The notes under the pieces are model-generated. The model saw nothing but the letters and a program-made list of their open reading frames with translations. It searched no databases and was not told the origin of the DNA. Below, in pieces: positions 771 through 11,679 of a stretch of DNA of 13,213 nucleotides. Origin of the DNA: Candidatus Nanopusillus sp. (lineage in GTDB: Archaea > Nanobdellota > Nanobdellia > Nanobdellales > Nanobdellaceae); the NCBI GenBank assembly GCA_028276785.1, contig JAPYVP010000014.1, positions 1 to 13,213 of the forward strand, given 5' to 3'. Each line of letters starts with the position of its first letter. The stretch's first letter is position 1. The position numbers were made by a program, and so were the translations under genes.

Positions 771-842
771 TGGACCCGCCGGGATTTGAACCCGGGACCT
801 CTGGCTAGCGAGGCCAGAATCCTACCACTAGACTACGGGCCC
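771..842 (-). tRNA. tRNA-Ala (anticodon CGC)
   Basis: Reverse complement reads GGGCCCGTAGTCTAGTGGTAGGATTCTGGCCTCGCTAGCCAGAGGTCCCGGGTTCAAATCCCGGCGGGTCCA. It has a 7-bp acceptor stem with the G3:U70 alanine identity pair. The anticodon stem is CTGGC/GCCAG with loop CTCGCTA (anticodon CGC). The T-arm is CCGGG-TTCAAAT-CCCGG and the discriminator is A. Length 72 nt, no intron, CCA not encoded. Confidence 0.93.
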
Positions 843-1744: not shown

Positions 1745-2360
1745 TTTTATTATCTATTTTAGATTTTTTTATAAATCTTGAGTAAATAATATTAAATACT
1801 AATAAAGAAATTTGTACTAGGATATATAATATTATATATAAAAGTAAAGGATTCAACCAATTTATATTTATTATTGGCAAATAAAATGGTAAAGTATTTG
1901 TTATAACATTTACAGATAATAATTTTGGATCATATGTTTCGTTTAAAGTTATTATATTGTAATTTGCACGGTAAAAACCCAGAAAACTATTATTATAATA
2001 TATAGCAAAATCTTGATTGTATAGTATTGGATTTGTTATTAATATACTTGTTGTATTATTTATATTTGTAATATAAAATCCTGATTGAAATGCAAAGATA
2101 ATAAAAATTAAAATAAAAATTCCAAATATAGTGATAATTATTGTGTGTTTCAGTATTTTTGAATATATTTTAGTAATTTCTCCCATAATATTACTTAATT
2201 CTTCTAATTTTCCAGATTTAAAACTTTCAATGTATCTTTTTTGTATCTCTTGCAATTTTTTTTGATGTTCTCTTATTCCAAGCTTTTTTTCAATTATTTT
2301 TATTACTATGGTTACTAGTATAACTAAAAAAAGTACATAGAAGAATAGCGCATTTATCAT
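1737..2360 (-). CDS. DUF106-type membrane protein (archaeal YidC/Oxa1-superfamily-like insertase candidate)
   Basis: Architecture is TM1 (ALFFYVLFLVILVTIVI), a charged helical hairpin (EHQKKLQEIQKRYIESFKSGKLEELSNIMGEITKIYSKILKH), TM2 (IIITIFGIFILIFIIFAF), then LPFYLPI...NWLNPLLLYIILYILVQISLL. This matches the DUF106 (M. jannaschii Mj0480-type) layout. It sits immediately after secY (ATGA overlap), the conserved archaeal position for this family. The call rests on architecture and synteny, not a computed alignment. Confidence 0.55.
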   Translation of the reverse strand: MINALFFYVLFLVILVTIVIKIIEKKLGIREHQKKLQEIQKRYIESFKSGKLEELSNIMGEITKIYSKILKHTIIITIFGIFILIFIIFAFQSGFYITNINNTTSILITNPILYNQDFAIYYNNSFLGFYRANYNIITLNETYDPKLLSVNVITNTLPFYLPIININWLNPLLLYIILYILVQISLLVFNIIYSRFIKKSKIDNKNG

Positions 2361-3712
2361 TTCAGATATTTTCCAATTAATGGTATTAAATATAACGCAT
2401 CTGCCCTCTTCAAGTCATTATATATTTGTCCGGCTATTACTATTAATAATAATATACTTACCCCAGATATTGCAGAACTTAGTATATCACTCAAAGATGC
2501 TAATAATCCCATTAAAAATCCAGATAAATATCCTATAGGATCTATATATTTTCTTAACATATCTTCTACAACTCTTGGATCTCTTGTATATAATGGAGAA
2601 TTTGGGTTACTTGTTAAATAATTTGCTAAATTTTTTGGATCTAAACCTGTAGAATATATCCAAAATTTAGATATGAACATTCCACCAACTGTAAATAATA
2701 AAAAGTAGAATATTACATGAAATATGTTGAATGGAACATATAGATATTCAATTCCAAACTGTCCAATATTTATTATTAAGTTTGGCGGAGATAATAATTG
2801 TACAATTGGATTATTAGGATTAAATCCAAATAAAGATTGTATTTGAATTATTAATGCATAAATGAATATTGCTGGAATAACAGAAGTATATAATAATTGT
2901 ATTGGATATTTAACAATTTCTCCATTAATGTTTAAATATAATAATGGAACTTCTATTTTTAGTGACTGTAGATATACTGCAAATATTAAAATTCCAATAG
3001 TAATAATTGCGGCAAATAAAAATGCAAGACCCAAATTAATATTTCCTTGAGATAAATATAAAATTCCTTCTGGTATATATCCTGTTGGTTGTGTAAACAG
3101 ACCTGTTGAAGTAGATGGGGGAGAAAGAGGATTAAATAGTCTTAGAACTAATGCAATACTTATTGTAGTTAAAATAATAACATTAATTCCAGATGTAATT
3201 CCATATTTATATGAAAAATCATCTAACAATAATATAATAATACCGCCAATAAATAATTGTAGAAATAAAATAATGTACAAAATTATTGGATCTATTTCTA
3301 AAAATACGTTTGGTGATATATTTCCACTAGCGATTAAAATAGTACTTTCTATTATAATAAATATTAATGCAATAAATCTTGCATAGTTGTCAAATTTGGT
3401 TTTTCCTTCATCAGTACTTATATCGATATTTATTATCCCAAGACCAACTAACAATTGCATAAAAATTCCAGCAATTACTATTGGAGCGATTCCTACGCTT
3501 GCTAGAGTTCCTAAATTAGATCCAAATAACCATAAAAATTGTTCAAGTCTTGTAGAAACTTCTGGAGATATTCCAAATAACGGTATTGATGCTAGAACAG
3601 TATATAATGCAATTACTAATAATGTGTTATATACTCTTTCTCTTAAAGATAATGTTTTTTTTGGTTCTTCGATGGATGGTAAGTATGAGATTATTTTATC
3701 TATTATGTTCAT
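2357..3712 (-). CDS. secY: Preprotein translocase subunit SecY (Sec61-alpha)
   Basis: 451-aa polytopic membrane protein with about 10 hydrophobic segments. The N-terminus (...RVYNTLLVIALYTVLASIPLFG) and C-terminal region are typical of archaeal SecY. It is followed by the conserved DUF106/L34e/L14e neighbours. Confidence 0.93.
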   Translation of the reverse strand: MNIIDKIISYLPSIEEPKKTLSLRERVYNTLLVIALYTVLASIPLFGISPEVSTRLEQFLWLFGSNLGTLASVGIAPIVIAGIFMQLLVGLGIINIDISTDEGKTKFDNYARFIALIFIIIESTILIASGNISPNVFLEIDPIILYIILFLQLFIGGIIILLLDDFSYKYGITSGINVIILTTISIALVLRLFNPLSPPSTSTGLFTQPTGYIPEGILYLSQGNINLGLAFLFAAIITIGILIFAVYLQSLKIEVPLLYLNINGEIVKYPIQLLYTSVIPAIFIYALIIQIQSLFGFNPNNPIVQLLSPPNLIINIGQFGIEYLYVPFNIFHVIFYFLLFTVGGMFISKFWIYSTGLDPKNLANYLTSNPNSPLYTRDPRVVEDMLRKYIDPIGYLSGFLMGLLASLSDILSSAISGVSILLLIVIAGQIYNDLKRADALYLIPLIGKYLK

Positions 3713-3744
3713 AAATAAAACTAATTAAAAACATTTTTAAATTA

Positions 3745-5790
3745 TTAATCAACTTTCTCTCCAGAAAATGTTTCCTGCCTTTTACCCGTTCCTCCAAGAT
3801 CTATTGGTAATTGTGAAAATATTGAGATAGAATATGGAGAGTATCTTGTATATTGAATATAATCTGGAATAACTTGTACTCCTCCATATGGTAACATTGT
3901 ATTAAATTGGTTTATAATATTTCCATATATATTATAAGGTCCAGCACCTGCAATTAAATTGTAATATTCATTTCCATAGATTGCATGAAATTGATTAACA
4001 TAATATCCACCAGGTTCATGTACAATTGTTACTTTTTTATTTTCTAATATATCTCTAATTTTCTCTAATTCTGATGCAATAACATCATCCCAACCCATTC
4101 CTAATGGTAAATGTGTATCTTCTCCAGCTTGTGTCTCATGGACATGTAAATGCTTAATTTCTGGTTTAATTTCTTCAACCCATTTTAATATATCTTCTTT
4201 CGTATATCCATACTTTTCAAACATTTTTATATGTCCAACATCTAATGTAGCTCCTATTCTTTCTTTAACAAATTCATCTACACTACCATATTTTTTCTCA
4301 ATTTCATTTTTTAATTCAGGATATTTTTCTATTACTTTTTTTACTTCTTCCCTTATATTATTTAATAATTTTTTCCATATATCGGGTCTTGTAGCAGGTG
4401 CTCCAGGATATGATTCTTCAATATTTATATAACTTAAATACTTATCAAAATCCTTATACCATCCTTCTGGATTTTTACTTATTTCTCTTTCAATTAGCAT
4501 TCTAATTCCCTCAGCTATTACTTCTGGAGCTGTTTTTATTGCAACTTCTTGATATGGTTTTACAATTGGAATTGGAAATTCTGAAAATACTGTGTTTTTT
4601 AGCTGTGATAATAGATGATTTGTATATTCAATAGATAATATCATGTCATTTACAAAATCAAACATTTTATTCATAAAATAATCTCTATATGCCGGGCTAC
4701 TATTATTCTGTACAACTTCTTTAGCAAATTTAGATATTTCATTTTCATAGTTTTCTATTCTCTTCAAGCTATCTTCAAAATGTTGTTTATAAAAGGATAT
4801 CTTATTTCTTGCAGCTTCTCTTAAATTTGGATCTGCAATATCTTTTATATTATCCCATATTGCATCAATATATTCTTTTACTTTTTCTAAGAAAGACCTG
4901 TATGTCTTTAGATTGTATAAAAATTCTCCTATTTTTTCTTGATCTGTACTAGTATATCCAAAATAACTTATTAATTGATAATTATCTAATAATCTTTTTT
5001 TTATTGAATAAAGGTTTCTATCAATATCATTAAATATATTCATCCAAACCTTTTCATTTTCTTTATAAATTTCATCAACAGCAGAAAGTCTTATTGCCCT
5101 TTCTACGGCACCAGTTAAATATCTTCCAGGCATAACAACCCCCATATATTCGTAATTTCCATTTAAATTAATGTATGCAGCTTCTTGTTTTGCAAAGGCC
5201 CAAGATGGTATATTTTTTTCTAATGTTTCCATATCAACATTATTACTAACTAGCCTATTATATTGTTCTGATGTTATATATCCTAATCTATATAATTTTT
5301 CTGCAAAAGATTTTCTAAATTCATAATTACTTAAAAGTTCATCTTTTAATCTTTTTTCAAAATCTTTATCCCATTCTGTTAATGTAAGATCTCCTGCATG
5401 CATATTTACCTTAATTGGTTCTCCATAAATTCTTGCCATTATTCCCGCACTTTCCAATATTACTGATGTTTTGTAAGCCATTTGTTTTATATTATCCTTT
5501 CTTATATTCCCCCTTTCATCTGTTGCAGGTAATTGAAAATCCCTTTCAGGAGCATGAATTGTAACTTCAACATTATTTATTCTTGCATTTCTTGCAATTT
5601 CTTCAAATATTTGTCTTGGTATATTTGCCCATTGGCCTGAAAAGGAAAATGTTTGTATTTCTACTCCAGGATATCCAGCAGATATTTTTGATAGGTATTG
5701 TTGTAACTGATTTACGGTCTGGGGACTTGTACTGGTAGATATTCCCCTATTATATAATTCCTTTGGATATTTTTTATCTTCATTATCCAT
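3745..5790 (-). CDS. Xylose-isomerase-like / endonuclease IV-like TIM-barrel metalloprotein split by a roughly 290-aa helical insertion; function unknown
   Basis: Ordered motifs are TIHAPE (H79), VNMHAGD (H131), INIEES (E458/459), ATLDVGHIKM (D517, H520), HLHVHE (H547/549/551), GEDTHLPLGMG (D558, H560) and TIVHEPGG (E592). They follow the order of the E. coli Nfo ligands H69, H109, E145, D179/H182, H216, D229/H231, E261. The H131-E458 spacing is about 327 aa against 36 aa in Nfo. The ORF is long and uninterrupted. It lies 24 nt downstream of the 560-aa gene and ends 32 nt upstream of the secY start. Confidence 0.55.
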   Translation of the reverse strand: MDNEDKKYPKELYNRGISTSTSPQTVNQLQQYLSKISAGYPGVEIQTFSFSGQWANIPRQIFEEIARNARINNVEVTIHAPERDFQLPATDERGNIRKDNIKQMAYKTSVILESAGIMARIYGEPIKVNMHAGDLTLTEWDKDFEKRLKDELLSNYEFRKSFAEKLYRLGYITSEQYNRLVSNNVDMETLEKNIPSWAFAKQEAAYINLNGNYEYMGVVMPGRYLTGAVERAIRLSAVDEIYKENEKVWMNIFNDIDRNLYSIKKRLLDNYQLISYFGYTSTDQEKIGEFLYNLKTYRSFLEKVKEYIDAIWDNIKDIADPNLREAARNKISFYKQHFEDSLKRIENYENEISKFAKEVVQNNSSPAYRDYFMNKMFDFVNDMILSIEYTNHLLSQLKNTVFSEFPIPIVKPYQEVAIKTAPEVIAEGIRMLIEREISKNPEGWYKDFDKYLSYINIEESYPGAPATRPDIWKKLLNNIREEVKKVIEKYPELKNEIEKKYGSVDEFVKERIGATLDVGHIKMFEKYGYTKEDILKWVEEIKPEIKHLHVHETQAGEDTHLPLGMGWDDVIASELEKIRDILENKKVTIVHEPGGYYVNQFHAIYGNEYYNLIAGAGPYNIYGNIINQFNTMLPYGGVQVIPDYIQYTRYSPYSISIFSQLPIDLGGTGKRQETFSGEKVD

Positions 5791-5814
5791 TTATATATAA
5801 AGGTATTTCAGAAT

Positions 5815-7497
5815 TTAATAGTTTAACATATTGAATGTCTTTTTAAATGTCATATATATTTTCCATGCAGTATCTATTGTTTTTTCTTTTGTTTCTTCTA
5901 TTATTAATTTTTTTTCTTCTTCAATACTCTTTCTTTTTATATTTTTTTCAATATTTGATAAATCCCTACCAAAAGTCGATATAACTTTAAGTAACCACAT
6001 TATAATATTTCCTAAAGTTGGAAATATTAATGAAATACTAGATTCTTTTTTTTCTTCCTTCTTTTCCTCTTTTTTATCTTCTTTTTTCTCTTTTTTCTCG
6101 CTTTCTAAATATTTTTTTATCCATGTAATACTTGATAATGCTCTTTTTATTCTCTCATCTTTTTCCAATTCTTCTATAAGTTCTCTTGTCCAGCTTATTT
6201 TATAAGGATCATTCCTTATTTCTTCAGGTTTTGCATCAGATTTTTCAGCAACTATCTTTAATAGTTTTTCATCGCTTTTTATTATATCGTATAAAAATAC
6301 TTCTAAAATTAAACCAGACATGCTTTTTATATAATCGTCTGTCAATCCTGTTATATATGCTAAATCTTCACTTTCTTGATTTATTATTATAGAATCATAT
6401 TCTTCTTTTTCAACTAAATAGGCCCTGAGTACTATATCTATCCTTCCTAGGAAAGAATACATTCTTGCATAAGTATCGGTTCTTCCTACTACAGTAGGTA
6501 TTGCTCTCGTTTTCATATCAATTTCATATAATGGTATGTAAGTTTTTTCTATTTCTTTTCCTTCTTTTTCGTCATATTCTTTTACTTTTACCTCTTTTTG
6601 ATTTGCTATTAATGAAATATTTATAATTGCTGTTTCAAATGCATTTACAACATCTATAGGTTGATCTGGATTTTGTAATAATTTTCTTGCAAATTTAAAA
6701 TACGGTTTTGCAAATTCAACATAATATAACAATGAGCTTAGTTCATGTTTTAGATAGGATTTTAATAAGACAATTCTATCATATAAAATTTTTTTATTAT
6801 TTTCAAGCCAACTATAAAATTCTATTAATCTACTATTTAATAAATTATATATTCTTCTATTTATTATTCCATTATTAAATAATTCATTTAAATCTCTTGG
6901 AGTGGTGTTTGTTTGATCATTAAATAATTTATTATATAATTCCTGACCTATTAATTTTTTATTCTTAAATTTTTCAAGTTCAGATTTTAGATCTGTAAAA
7001 AGAAATAGATCTACAATACTTGGGAACCTAGATGCCTGTAAATTTCTTAAAGCACCCGCACCCCTTGAAGAATCGACATTAGATAGCCATCTATCTTTTA
7101 ATGCCAAATAACTTGCAAGAGCTTCTTCGGGATCTTTTGATAATAAATTTTCATATAATATATATACTGAATAAAGCTGTTTATATTCATTTAAAATAGA
7201 AATAATTGTTCTTGTCAATGCGTTAATTAATTCTGCCAATGATCTTGCATTATTTAATACGTTTGTTAACCTTTGACCCATTTCTCCAAAAAATGAAGAT
7301 CCAACAGATGATGTAAAATCATCAGATAATTTATTAATGTCCATCTTTAAACTATCTCTAATAAAATCTACAAGCCAAAAATATATTTGTTCCATCCTTA
7401 TATTTGGATTATCTAATATAAGTTTTATTTCTAATATTTTATGTTTATTGTCTTCAATCTTTTCATTTTTTAAATCATCAATTTTTATATTTTTCAT
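5815..7497 (-). CDS. Hypothetical 560-aa mostly helical protein with a Lys/Glu-rich linker and C-terminal hydrophobic helix; no family recognised
   Basis: Long uninterrupted ORF in DNA where stop codons are frequent. Composition is helix-favouring throughout, with a short beta-like core (residues 320-365). There is a KE-rich tract ESEKKEKKEDKKEEKKEEKKE (residues 465-485) followed by SISLIFPTLGNIIMWLLKVISTF. I saw no Walker A or other catalytic motif. Confidence refers to it being a real gene. Met35 (MEQIYFW) is an alternative start. Confidence 0.8.
   Translation of the reverse strand: MKNIKIDDLKNEKIEDNKHKILEIKLILDNPNIRMEQIYFWLVDFIRDSLKMDINKLSDDFTSSVGSSFFGEMGQRLTNVLNNARSLAELINALTRTIISILNEYKQLYSVYILYENLLSKDPEEALASYLALKDRWLSNVDSSRGAGALRNLQASRFPSIVDLFLFTDLKSELEKFKNKKLIGQELYNKLFNDQTNTTPRDLNELFNNGIINRRIYNLLNSRLIEFYSWLENNKKILYDRIVLLKSYLKHELSSLLYYVEFAKPYFKFARKLLQNPDQPIDVVNAFETAIINISLIANQKEVKVKEYDEKEGKEIEKTYIPLYEIDMKTRAIPTVVGRTDTYARMYSFLGRIDIVLRAYLVEKEEYDSIIINQESEDLAYITGLTDDYIKSMSGLILEVFLYDIIKSDEKLLKIVAEKSDAKPEEIRNDPYKISWTRELIEELEKDERIKRALSSITWIKKYLESEKKEKKEDKKEEKKEEKKESSISLIFPTLGNIIMWLLKVISTFGRDLSNIEKNIKRKSIEEEKKLIIEETKEKTIDTAWKIYMTFKKTFNMLNY
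6043..6106 (-). repeat. Low-complexity polypurine (coding strand) / polypyrimidine (+ strand) tract encoding the KE-rich linker
   Basis: The + strand at 6043-6106 is a run of T/C with only two purines (a6076, g6100). It consists of degenerate ttc/ttt/ctt triplets and is in frame with the 560-aa CDS (AAA/AAG/GAA codons). Confidence 0.8.
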
Positions 7498-7500
7498 ATA

Positions 7501-7544
7501 TCGATATTAAAATATGTTGGAAAATAAAAATTTTAATATATCGA
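7501..7544. promoter_or_regulatory. Imperfect inverted repeat in the divergent promoter region
   Basis: Left arm is tcgatattaaaat (7501-7513). The reverse complement of 7530-7544 is tcgatatattaaaat, identical except for a 2-nt (at) insertion. The 16-nt spacer holds back-to-back TATA-like elements (complement of 7521-7528 = TTTATTTT; 7531-7540 = TTTTAATATA). An additional perfect 10-bp palindrome ATATCGATAT lies at 7497-7506. Confidence 0.3.
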
Positions 7545-7561
7545 AAGATACTTATATTTAA

Positions 7562-8104
7562 ATGAAGATGAATTTAATAATATTATCAAGTAGAGGGTTT
7601 GATGAAGACGATCTTTTTAACTTTTTAGATATATTGGATGGTAGAACATATATTGCTATAAAAAATAGAAAAATTGGAATAGGAAAATATAAAAGTAAAG
7701 TATTACCAGATTTTGATATACATGAAATATTCTTAATGAGAGAAAACCATTTTGATAGGTTGATATATATTTCTGATGAAGGATATAAAGAATTTTTAAA
7801 TGTAGAGTCTCAAGCAATATTTACAAGATTTATAAATTCATACAGGACGGTTATATTATCTTCTTTATCACAAATAGCATTTTTAAAATCTGGTTTATTA
7901 GCGGGAAGAACAATAACATATAATTATGATGAATATCCACAATATTTAAAATTCTTTCCAGATTTTGGTGTGAAATTGGTAACAAATGCGGATTATGTAG
8001 TAGATAAAAATCTAATAACTGTAAAGGGTAGAGACTCTATATATTCTTTAGGTGAAAAATTGAAAGATATAGAAGAAGAATTAAGAAAAATTAGTAATAT
8101 ATAA
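7562..8104 (+). CDS. DJ-1/PfpI-fold (class I glutamine amidotransferase-like) protein lacking the nucleophile Cys; probable pseudoenzyme
   Basis: By-eye alignment to PfpI/PH1704-type proteins, recalled from memory. [15 protein letters not shown] matches KVLFL..[18 protein letters not shown] matches [37 protein letters not shown] matches [43 protein letters not shown] matches VVVDGNWVSSRVPAD. The Cys-His of ICHGP is replaced by Leu102-Ser103 (7865-7870). Confidence 0.55.
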   Translation: [180 protein letters not shown]

Positions 8105-11106: not shown

Positions 11107-11679
11107 ATGATAGAAAAAGAATATGTTGAAAGTTTAAAAGAAAAATTTAGAGAATTTGAAAATAAAAAAGATAAAATAATTGAACTGGGAGTAAAATTAA
11201 ATAGAACATCAAAATCAATAATATATTCAGTAATAAGAGGTGATATAAAATCTGCAAATGAATATATGGTTGAAATGGATAAATATAAAGAAGAAATAGA
11301 TAAGATTGTAAGAGAAGAACCGAGATTGTATAATAATGCTCAAATAAGTTATCAGGAGTATGTAGAAGCAAAAATATTCTATAATTTTATATTAAATAAT
11401 AGAATACCAAAGAATGATGAATTAAAGGTTGATGAGTATTCATATGTTATGGGATTGATGGATTTTGTTGGAGAATTGTATAGAAAATCTATAGAAGAAA
11501 TGTTAAAGAATAATGTGGAGTTTGCTTTGAGGGCTAGGGAAATTATATATGAAATATACAAAAATATGTTATATATGGAATTTAAAAATTATGATATAAG
11601 GAGAAAGGTAGATTATGTTGGAGATATATATAATCTATTAACAGATAAAATATTTATAAGAAAAGTTTCTAGAGAATAA
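11107..11679 (+). CDS. Translin-family protein (archaeal C3PO-like RNase candidate)
   Basis: 190-aa all-helical protein with ...ISYQEYVEAKIFYNF... (E84-x-x-E87) and ...YVMGLMDFVGELYRK... (D119). This matches the translin/TRAX family pattern including the acidic residues that are catalytic in TRAX/archaeal C3PO. It starts 4 nt after the truD stop. Confidence 0.75.
   Translation: MIEKEYVESLKEKFREFENKKDKIIELGVKLNRTSKSIIYSVIRGDIKSANEYMVEMDKYKEEIDKIVREEPRLYNNAQISYQEYVEAKIFYNFILNNRIPKNDELKVDEYSYVMGLMDFVGELYRKSIEEMLKNNVEFALRAREIIYEIYKNMLYMEFKNYDIRRKVDYVGDIYNLLTDKIFIRKVSRE

Follow-up and report, generated by a model that had tools for sequence, protein, structure and literature searches.

A conserved two-gene unit of Nanoarchaeota encoding a predicted new-fold protein and a split TIM-barrel protein with endonuclease IV-type metal-ligand positions

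Two adjacent genes, herein designated A and B, are found together throughout the Nanoarchaeota, indicating that the pair is a real and previously undescribed lineage-wide unit. As the best overall explanation, still a tentative one, we propose that a conserved operon specific to Nanoarchaeota has A and B as its two-gene core, and that the pair is not an accessory of secY. Together with A in a complex, the B protein most likely acts as a phosphodiesterase, a reading that we favor while giving it less than even confidence. The window, a stretch of 13,213 nucleotides from Candidatus Nanopusillus sp., carries the pair on its minus strand, both reading frames starting with ATG.

2357..3712, (-): secY, assigned with Pfam and NCBIfam; context, outside the module
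3713..3744, (-): B-secY spacer, 32 nt, with TTTAAAAA located ~29 to 22 nt before the ATG of secY
3745..5790, (-): gene B (681 aa), MJ1311-like AP_endonuc_2 TIM barrel with an inserted helical domain; orthologue of Nps_03005, arCOG01895
5791..5814, (-): A-B spacer attctgaaatacctttatatataa, 24 nt
5815..7497, (-): gene A (560 aa), partner with a predicted novel fold; orthologue of Nps_03000, MJ1_0680 and YN1_2290

The coordinates and both spacer lengths agree with an earlier note on this DNA, in which two large co-directional ORFs were described. At the GC content of the window (~25%), chance would not be expected to produce ORFs as long as 560 and 681 codons, and A and B are real genes. Both are under purifying selection, with dN/dS against the Nanopusillus and Nanobsidianus orthologues of 0.16 for A and 0.26-0.32 for B, and orthologues at 82-96% identity number in the dozens. 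Core translation genes flank the pair. No terminator-like element was found within the A-B spacer (5791..5814), which, being only 24 nt long, leaves no room for a standard archaeal promoter at -26. Within the B-secY spacer, TTTAAAAA could be a candidate independent TATA-type promoter directing a leaderless secY mRNA, the surrounding DNA being very AT-rich.

In 36 of the 37 loci whose sequence continues for at least 7 kb beyond A, gene B was found downstream of A on the same strand; the co-occurrence of adjacent homologues that the earlier note had proposed to check was thus observed. The informative loci span Woesearchaeota, Pacearchaeota and Nanopusillaceae, and the homologues are only 22-30% identical (about 25%) to those of the window. 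In the other Nanopusillaceae loci, A and B are separated by up to 31 nt or overlap by up to 41 nt. Outside the Nanopusillaceae, a small charged disordered protein (C) is usually encoded between A and B, and a Pol-beta-type nucleotidyltransferase (D) was detected downstream of B in 44-48 loci. Neither C nor D occurs in the window or in the Nanopusillaceae loci, indicating that they cannot be obligatory partners. The nucleotidyltransferase-type gene often located after B, with its weak matches to PADLOC candidate systems, might suggest a mobile-element, viral or defence cassette present here by chance. This is highly improbable, because PADLOC and PHROG gave no match for A or B, no relatives of A were found in 2.9 million viral contigs, the pair keeps its position across 434 species genomes, all from one phylum, and its base composition is that of the flanks, with core translation genes on either side.

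The location beside secY, which the earlier note had pointed out as unusual, is a local accident and not a property of the module: adjacency of B and secY was observed in Nanopusillaceae loci only, and in none of about 60 Woesearchaeota and Pacearchaeota loci. In the window and in Nanobdella, the pair directly precedes secY and a YidC-like gene, and A of the window includes a hydrophobic 19-mer (residues 488-506, Kyte-Doolittle 1.83), both consistent with a role in protein translocation or at the membrane, either SecY-associated or anchored. We consider such a role improbable, given the restricted secY adjacency and the distribution of the hydrophobic segment. A Kyte-Doolittle value above 1.6 is reached anywhere in only 11 of 63 A-family members, and the segment, replaced in the family consensus by 'NPFxAL', is by this comparison specific to the genus Nanopusillus; the membrane association of A through a C-terminal hydrophobic helix, as suggested before, is accordingly not a family feature. 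In addition, neither sequence reading nor the published N. acidilobi table, in which the A orthologue has no listed transmembrane domain, gave a signal peptide or predicted transmembrane domain for A or B.

The B protein is composed of a TIM barrel interrupted by a helical insertion and followed by a tail.

5371..5790, (-): B residues 1-140, N-terminal half-barrel with H79 ('HAP') and H131, from model and alignment
4435..5370, (-): B residues 141-452, inserted segment separating the H131 strand from the E458 strand, from DSSP; pLDDT mostly >85
3952..4434, (-): B residues 453-613, C-terminal half-barrel with E458, D517, H520, H547/H549, D558, H560 and E592
3748..3951, (-): B residues 614-681, tail rich in Tyr and Gly, predicted to be disordered; pLDDT <50

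B matched Pfam AP_endonuc_2 in two stretches at 41.1 bits (cut-off 31.1; 52 bits for the L003 homologue), and a distant homologue was aligned with both halves. In the AlphaFold model (AF2; pLDDT 87.5, pTM 0.86), eight barrel strands (18-20, 42-46, 75-79, 127-131, 454-458, 512-517, 545-550 and 588-591) alternate with helices and are broken at residues ~141-452. The earlier description of B as a split endonuclease IV (EndoIV)-like barrel, with metalloenzyme motifs in an undescribed architecture, is thus upheld by both the profile match and the model. Out of 1.84 billion proteins, a profile of B detected only 336 clusters, and nearly all of the best 150 of the 336 are 590-720 aa long; the small number of clusters and the uniform length indicate that B represents a discrete family and not generic AP_endonuc_2.

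The C-terminal half-barrel was aligned to MJ1311, E. coli Nfo and FrlC. All 71 B sequences each carry H79, H131, E458, D517, H549 and E592, while H520 is present in 70, D558 in 61 and H560 in 62 of the 71. The order of the nine positions, and the motifs around them, are those of Nfo and MJ1311; the residues of the trinuclear zinc site of Nfo are reportedly H69, H109, E145, D179, H182, H216, D229, H231 and E261. By this alignment, B keeps all nine ligand positions of the three-zinc site of EndoIV.

With the 71-sequence profile, MJ1311 of M. jannaschii (PDB 3wqo; 'D-tagatose 3-epimerase-like protein') was the sole significant solved relative among the 60 matches listed (E 5.5e-12), sharing with B the motifs HAP, HPG, IEN, DxGH, HxH, DxH and E. 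It is said to retain the nine EndoIV zinc residues without the DNA-binding groove. MJ1311 is a plain 293-aa barrel lacking the ~310-aa helical insertion, the conserved disordered tail and a known A-type partner, all of which B has. The compact single-domain form of MJ1311-like proteins (~290 aa) thus does not describe the B family, in which the insertion measures 229-356 aa and the tail 82-114 aa. Since MJ1311 is itself uncharacterised, it gives B no annotation; the Pfam match of B above the gathering threshold is to the broad AP_endonuc_2 superfamily only, and is thus not the confident match to a well-characterised family that the earlier note would have taken as refutation. The B orthologue Nps_03005 is listed under arCOG01895, class R (Wurch et al. 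2016, Supplementary Data 1).

EndoIV (E. coli Nfo, arCOG01894) and B share a TIM barrel and the nine ordered metal-ligand positions, and the three-metal phosphodiester chemistry of EndoIV could therefore operate in B. Unlike Nfo, B has the insertion, the tail and a partner, and the overall sequence similarity is negligible (hmmsearch of Nfo with the B-barrel HMM, E 0.013-0.04). One could regard B as a decorated EndoIV orthologue, an AP endonuclease of base-excision repair, with A as an unrelated neighbor: all nine ligand positions are kept, MJ1311 appears in a published table of archaeal EndoIV homologues (PMC2770678), and the Nanobdella B orthologue is annotated 'AP endonuclease'. This is quite improbable. 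The NCBIfam nfo model matched none of the 71 B-family members, no PDB EndoIV was among the 60 matches listed for the B profile, and the A-B order is kept far beyond chance. Moreover, N. acidilobi, a cultivated close relative, encodes besides its arCOG01895 protein a canonical endonuclease IV, Nps_01285 (arCOG01894), that was detected in its proteome; the role of housekeeping AP endonuclease is therefore an unlikely one for B.

Among characterised families, FrlC came closest to B in profile comparisons, its NCBIfam model matching 52 of the 71 B members below threshold (best E 1e-9); CbiR gave weak matches in 13 of the 71 and hydroxypyruvate isomerase matched 12. FrlC shares with B the HxH...DxH..PG.G motif and carries seven of the nine EndoIV ligand positions, indicating that HxH...DxH is not diagnostic of a nuclease. 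The E-D-H-E positions of the single-metal epimerase site occur in B side by side with the further EndoIV ligands that FrlC lacks. The best Foldseek matches of the B barrel were D-tagatose 3-epimerases, and several B orthologues are annotated by JGI as sugar phosphate isomerase/epimerase. These observations are in agreement with B being a small-molecule enzyme that epimerises or isomerises sugars or sugar phosphates (ketoses), comparable to FrlC or D-tagatose 3-epimerase, in which only the central metal site would be used while A, C and the insertion would organise or regulate the enzyme. We regard it as unlikely. H79 and H520, for which FrlC has no equivalents and which sugar epimerases lack, are kept in B, and such an enzyme leaves unexplained why a dedicated 560-aa partner and a conserved, putative docking tail were retained across phylum-level divergence. 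To our knowledge, Nanoarchaeota have almost no sugar metabolism for it to serve. The cobamide-remodelling phosphodiesterase CbiR, of the same superfamily, has a nucleotide-loop substrate and not DNA as its target; its score for B was 23 against a cut-off of 105 bits, and the architecture and context of B differ. Taken at the level of sequence, the metal-ligand pattern of B favors EndoIV-type hydrolysis, while the sequence as a whole is nearer to sugar epimerases than to Nfo. A P-loop NTPase repair complex of the Rad50/SbcC type was rejected: the Walker A pattern is absent from A and B, as noted before for NTPase motifs, and the matches to Rad50 and RecN are sporadic coiled-coil noise.

Apart from short helices, the insertion of B (~310 aa) contains a beta-hairpin at 202-219 and a bundle of four helices (237-277, 284-315, 321-361 and 366-404). 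Conservation within B is lowest here (0.20-0.24), and by Foldseek the insertion resembled designed four-helix bundles only. The bundle also gave weak apolipoprotein-like matches (E at least 0.003), of a kind typical of Lys/Glu-rich helices. These matches, together with the occurrence of trinuclear zinc sites in phospholipase C as well, might suggest a variant of the membrane role, likewise improbable, in which B is a lipid-headgroup phosphodiesterase remodelling host-derived lipids through an amphipathic bundle; the E-values and the helix composition argue against it. In contrast to the insertion, the tail is better conserved (0.58) than the barrel (0.50-0.52), and the most conserved stretch of B is its last 26 residues, 'FSxLPxDLGG...ETFSGExxD'. 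A tail predicted to be disordered and yet best conserved is what is expected of a docking peptide, and the last 26 residues are a putative docking motif.

As the earlier note had stated, A matches no recognised family: Pfam, NCBIfam, PHROG and PADLOC were all empty. Its homologues were found in Nanoarchaeota only.

7297..7398, (-): A residues 34-67, strand-helix-strand, top conservation in A (0.66), from consensus and invariant columns and model secondary structure
6679..7296, (-): A residues 68-273, hairpin of two long antiparallel helices, tipped by a small helical part, from DSSP of the model
6409..6630, (-): A residues 290-363, extended antiparallel beta-sheet, strands of up to 24 residues, from the model
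5968..6102, (-): A residues 466-510, disordered Lys/Glu-rich linker followed by the short hydrophobic segment, from pLDDT and hydropathy

In contrast to the earlier view of a helical protein, A is not purely helical, for its AF2 model (pLDDT 86.4; residues 470-497 below 50) includes a large antiparallel sheet (strands 20-34, 53-63, 290-309, 314-337 and 346-363). Based on this model, A is predicted to have a new alpha/beta fold, an extended sheet flanked by two long helical hairpins with a basic hairpin surface, and looks non-enzymatic. Residues 34-67 include 'LEPIYFWILD' and 'DNFxSSPGSxHFGEMGQR', the latter a Gly/Ser-rich loop leading into the first long helix; the conservation of the hairpin helices is 0.61 (68-119) and 0.68 (214-273). 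The hairpin is basic family-wide (median pI 9.4, net charge +7) while B is acidic (pI 6.0). A search of the model against PDB and BFVD by Foldseek gave nothing below E 0.01. The top matches, not significant, were the EmrA, HlyD and MacA adaptors (EmrA, E 0.03, probability 0.72; TM of the matches 0.16-0.24), in which a beta-domain also carries a projecting long antiparallel helical hairpin, a likeness of architecture only. Unlike these proteins, A lacks a signal peptide, lipobox and TM anchor, has a second hairpin and much longer strands, and belongs to a monoderm organism. With Foldseek E of at least 0.03, TM not above 0.24 and no N-terminal hydrophobic segment, A was rejected as a periplasmic adaptor or membrane fusion protein.

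The earlier picture of an uncharacterised co-directional module, made of a protein without family and a split metal-site barrel, thus persists, and we can also propose the mode of action of the pair. B would be a metalloenzyme capable of catalysis, placed in the MJ1311-like branch of the xylose-isomerase-like/AP_endonuc_2 superfamily, in which the barrel of B would have gained a variable helical insertion (~230-360 aa) and a conserved disordered Tyr/Gly-rich tail. It would hydrolyse phosphodiesters by EndoIV-type three-metal chemistry. A would bind the conserved tail of B in a stable complex and form the platform to which a polyanionic substrate binds. The most plausible substrates would be the end of a nucleic acid, a lesion in it, or a molecule linked to a nucleotide. 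C and the Pol-beta-type nucleotidyltransferase D would belong to the same gene string in most Nanoarchaeota. In favor of this reading, we counted the conserved A-B order, the specificity of the B profile, the nine ligand positions with the H79 and H520 that are missing from FrlC, the conservation of the B tail, the basic hairpin of A versus acidic B, the separate endonuclease IV of N. acidilobi, the nucleotidyltransferase that follows, and the negative viral, phage and defence searches. Counted against it were the overall acidity of B, its barrel sequence nearer to sugar epimerases, the reported absence of the EndoIV DNA-binding groove from MJ1311, and the lack of C and D in Nanopusillaceae. 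A further point against it is that neither the A nor the B orthologue was detected in the N. acidilobi proteome.

A wider proposal, possible but in our view doubtful, is that A and B, together with C and D outside the Nanopusillaceae, constitute an unrecognised Nanoarchaeota-specific multiprotein machine without a known analogous complex, combining the new fold of A and a three-metal hydrolase with a bundle for a lineage-specific essential task. Candidate tasks would be the healing or processing of nucleic-acid ends, or the salvage of nucleotide-linked or phospholipid material from the host. Nanopusillus acidilobi, Nanobdella aerobiophila and strain YN1 are cultivated systems for testing.

As Nanoarchaeota genomes are among the smallest of cellular organisms, a pair of ~1,240 codons kept group-wide is very likely to be important to their biology. 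A has no detectable relatives in sequence or structure databases, and B shows a familiar enzyme barrel in an architecture that is unstudied. Knowledge of the activity of A-B would provide annotation for hundreds of genomes and might establish a new protein fold. In these obligate symbionts, it might also bring to light a step, particular to the lineage, in genome or RNA maintenance or in host-dependent salvage.

Two open reading frames, A (encoding the novel-fold partner protein) and B (encoding the split TIM-barrel metalloenzyme, orthologue of Nps_03005, arCOG01895), are present exactly where the earlier note had placed them (3745-7497), followed by secY, the identity of which was confirmed by Pfam and NCBIfam. 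The individual features of the window are:

771-842, minus strand, tRNA-Ala(CGC), intact and unsplit
2357..3712, minus strand, secY
3745..5790, minus strand, B, ORF of 681 aa
5815..7497, minus strand, A, ORF of 560 aa
8713-8796, minus strand, tRNA-Ser(CGA), intact and unsplit
11107-11679, plus strand, translin-family protein of 190 aa (Pfam E 2e-10), directly after TruD and TrpRS

The spacers described in that note were measured at the same lengths, 24 nt between A and B (5791..5814) and 32 nt between the end of B and the start of secY (3713-3744). The GC content of the window is only about 25%. Exact and near-exact sequence matches assign it to a Candidatus Nanopusillus (Nanoarchaeota). Both genes are real: dozens of their orthologues show 82-96% identity, and the dN/dS values, calculated against the Nanopusillus and Nanobsidianus loci, are 0.16 (A) and 0.26-0.32 (B). 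In the N. acidilobi gene table the orthologue of A is Nps_03000, an 'Uncharacterized protein' without arCOG and without TMD, and neither the A nor the B orthologue was detected in the proteome of this organism (PMC4935971, Supplementary Data 1). No relationship between A and B was found by hhalign. The Walker A motif is absent from both proteins, in agreement with the absence of an NTPase motif noted before, and a Mre11/Rad50-like complex is ruled out, there being no ATPase.

The position next to secY had been called unusual in that note. secY follows B only in the Nanopusillaceae loci, and this adjacency is a lineage-specific rearrangement. The hydrophobic C-terminal segment of A, from which membrane association had been suggested, does exist but is confined to the genus, being replaced elsewhere by a short 'NPFxAL' motif flanked by charged linkers. 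Given both restrictions, a function of A-B with SecY or at the membrane is unlikely. Within the B-secY spacer a TATA-like TTTAAAAA precedes the secY ATG by about 22-29 nt. This distance would suit a TATA box from which secY is transcribed independently into a leaderless mRNA, the signal being weak in DNA of 25% GC. The promoter and terminator scan of the window used a bacterial model and is uninformative for an archaeon.

Downstream of secY are the genes for a YidC/Oxa1-like membrane protein (207 aa, arCOG02673 in the N. acidilobi table), L34e and L14e. The segment 1107-3712 on the minus strand resembles the end of a typical archaeal secY region that lacks adk and cmk, and A and B stand in the place of L30/L15, normally upstream of secY. 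Divergently from A and upstream of it are a 180-aa arCOG00769-type protein, a membrane protein, tRNA-Ser, TrpRS, TruD and the translin-like protein. The 180-aa gene (7562-8104, plus strand) has no Pfam match and is kept next to A in all nine Nanopusillaceae loci; in N. acidilobi the orthologue carries the annotation 'putative intracellular protease/amidase' (arCOG00769). The entire arrangement is syntenic in Nanobdella aerobiophila, including the TruD/TrpRS/translin trio (locus L001).

The distribution of A was determined by scanning one genome per species for 185,579 species, and relatives were found in 434 genomes. The best 80 of these belong to Nanopusillaceae, Woese-, Pace- and Nanoarchaeota, together with a few MAGs labelled only 'archaeon'. 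Of 37 non-redundant loci that extend 7 kb or more beyond the 3' end of A, 36 have B downstream in the same orientation, so that the adjacency proposed for examination in other genomes is retained. The A proteins of these linked loci are only about 25-30% identical to A of the window, and other synteny around the pair is lost. In Nanopusillaceae A and B abut: at most 31 nt separate them, and at the other extreme they overlap by 41 nt. In most lineages outside Nanopusillaceae, a gene C of 150-240 aa is inserted between A and B on the same strand, encoding a fast-evolving, disordered protein with 35-48% charged residues and a basic and aromatic C-terminus. C (L003 7588-8037 and equivalents at about 45 loci of Woese-/Pacearchaeota) is essentially unalignable, often terminating in a basic/aromatic motif such as KRKYPWEA, KRYGWET or EIEVYHG. 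Gene D, after B in 44-48 loci, encodes a Pol-beta-type nucleotidyltransferase of about 290 aa whose helical C-terminal domain is conserved. In most non-Nanopusillaceae loci D is the next gene 3' of B and shares its strand (L003 9948-10784, L047 14022-14915 and about 45 other loci). Genes annotated as 'minimal nucleotidyltransferase fused to HEPN' are listed elsewhere for N. acidilobi (Nps_01570/01575). Gene U, divergent and upstream of A at about 40 loci, encodes a 126-aa coiled-coil protein (L061 6441-6821, Woese-/Pacearchaeota): a motif at the N-terminus is conserved, the middle is disordered and the coiled coil is at the C-terminus. C, D and U are all absent from the window, the divergent 180-aa gene being unrelated to C of other lineages. 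At L003, from one uncultured archaeon, the gene that immediately precedes A, in the same orientation, encodes a form III-type RuBisCO large subunit (4468-5946); this arrangement does not recur at other loci.

Protein A, searched as a single protein and with 63 members or homologues, gave no family match in Pfam, NCBIfam, PADLOC or PHROGs. A second profile search with the A alignment gave no additional homologues, and the profile against PDB sequences gave a single weak match to a sperm flagellar protein (E 0.0045). No relatives of A were found in 2.9 million viral contigs; with the lack of PADLOC and PHROGs matches, a mobile or defence origin of A-B is unlikely. The 'ribosomal protein L24E' label given by JGI to many orthologues appears spurious, as there is no ribosomal Pfam or NCBIfam match, and appears to be driven by the Lys/Glu-rich linker. 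The AlphaFold model of A is confident (pLDDT 86.4, pTM 0.71). From an N-terminal strand-helix-strand unit the chain passes into two long helices (68-119 and 214-273) that pair as a hairpin, the tip of which is small and helical. Residues 290-363 make up an extended antiparallel sheet, its strands reaching 24 residues in length; another long helix, the third, spans 364-408, and after the disordered Lys/Glu-rich linker (470-497) comes the last helix, of 59 residues. Foldseek against PDB and the BFVD viral structures gave nothing below E 0.01. The top matches were EmrA and ssRNA-phage maturation proteins (TM about 0.1-0.2, non-significant), and it is the periplasmic adaptor proteins, EmrA among them, that the fold resembles best, likewise non-significantly. 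An encapsulin-type shell with a cargo carrying a targeting peptide was rejected, since A is not HK97-like and has no viral or capsid fold match. The best-conserved regions of A are residues 34-67 ('LEPIYFWILD', 'SSPGSxHFGEMGQR') and both hairpin helices. The hairpin region is basic across the family (median pI 9.4); B is acidic.

Protein B matched Pfam AP_endonuc_2 in two stretches (41.1 bits, threshold 31.1). Its AlphaFold model, built with 71 homologues, is confident (pLDDT 87.5, pTM 0.86): the chain of an eight-stranded barrel exits after the strand ending at H131 and re-enters at the strand carrying E458. The insertion of about 310 residues in between is modelled as a beta-hairpin (202-219) and a bundle of four helices (237-404), together with short helices. 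This insertion is the least conserved region (0.20-0.24), with a length of 229-356 aa across homologues. The tail, residues 614-681, is predicted to be disordered, yet its last 26 residues show the top conservation (0.58, against about 0.51 in the barrel), as is typical of a peptide folding on a partner. Against 1.84 billion representative proteins the B profile gave 336 matches, the best 150 of which are nearly all 590-720 aa, indicating a discrete family that does not blend into generic AP_endonuc_2. One member of the B cluster of P0172 was deposited as 'Aquificaceae bacterium' (HID65612.1, 1-kb contig), which is almost certainly due to mis-binning of a Nanopusillaceae fragment. Short and long barrel forms coexist, as both are carried by one hot-spring Woesearchaeota contig (L006), the split barrel near its A homologue:

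3505-4335, minus strand, plain 276-aa MJ1311-like barrel
6675-7878, plus strand, very divergent 628-aa split barrel

The nine ligand positions of B (H79, H131, E458, D517, H520, H549, D558, H560 and E592) are kept in 61-71 of 71 sequences, their order and local motif context matching E. coli endonuclease IV by local alignment. In the E. coli enzyme the corresponding nine residues hold three zinc ions, with the ligand numbering of Hosfield et al. 1999. The metalloenzyme motif recognized in the earlier note is present in B, but is not by itself diagnostic of a nuclease, because HxH...DxH is also carried by E. coli fructoselysine 3-epimerase (FrlC), which in a control alignment had 7 of the 9 endonuclease IV ligand positions. 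FrlC is, however, without equivalents of H79 and H520, both invariant in B.

The only significant solved relative of B among PDB sequences is MJ1311 of Methanocaldococcus jannaschii (3wqo, E 5.5e-12), itself uncharacterised; the other matches were coiled-coil noise. The MJ1311 structure paper by Uechi et al. in 2014 reportedly described the nine zinc residues as kept and the DNA groove as absent. MJ1311 is listed as the M. jannaschii endonuclease IV homologue in a 2009 survey (PMC2770678), and no functional study was found in the literature on the A/B locus tags, arCOG01895 and MJ1311. Recurrent NCBIfam matches of the 71 B homologues were to fructoselysine 3-epimerase in 52 members (best 1e-9), to CbiR phosphodiesterase in 13 and to hydroxypyruvate isomerase in 12; nfo was matched by none. 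Because the insertion splits the alignment, B in a Foldseek search of the PDB matched the barrels of D-tagatose 3-epimerase and T. thermophilus endonuclease IV in fragments only. The main rival, that B is a ketose or sugar-phosphate epimerase, is in line with the FrlC and D-tagatose 3-epimerase similarities, but considering the two invariant histidines missing in FrlC we regard it as rather improbable. A housekeeping AP endonuclease is also unlikely, given the lack of nfo matches and the separate canonical endonuclease IV of N. acidilobi (Nps_01285, arCOG01894), detected in the proteome, which argues that B is a paralogue with some other role.

A-B is a conserved, lineage-restricted unit, in which a ligand-complete metallo-barrel of a new split architecture is combined with a partner of unrecognised fold. 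Conserved gene order is said, after Dandekar et al. in 1998, to be a classic predictor of physical interaction, and on this ground we infer that A and B would form a physical complex. The conserved tail of B may serve as a docking element, and B would carry out endonuclease IV-type phosphodiester hydrolysis of a polyanionic substrate presented by the basic hairpin of A. We propose this overall picture tentatively, as plausible but somewhat short of probable; that the substrate would be nucleic acid or nucleotide-linked is a more doubtful possibility.
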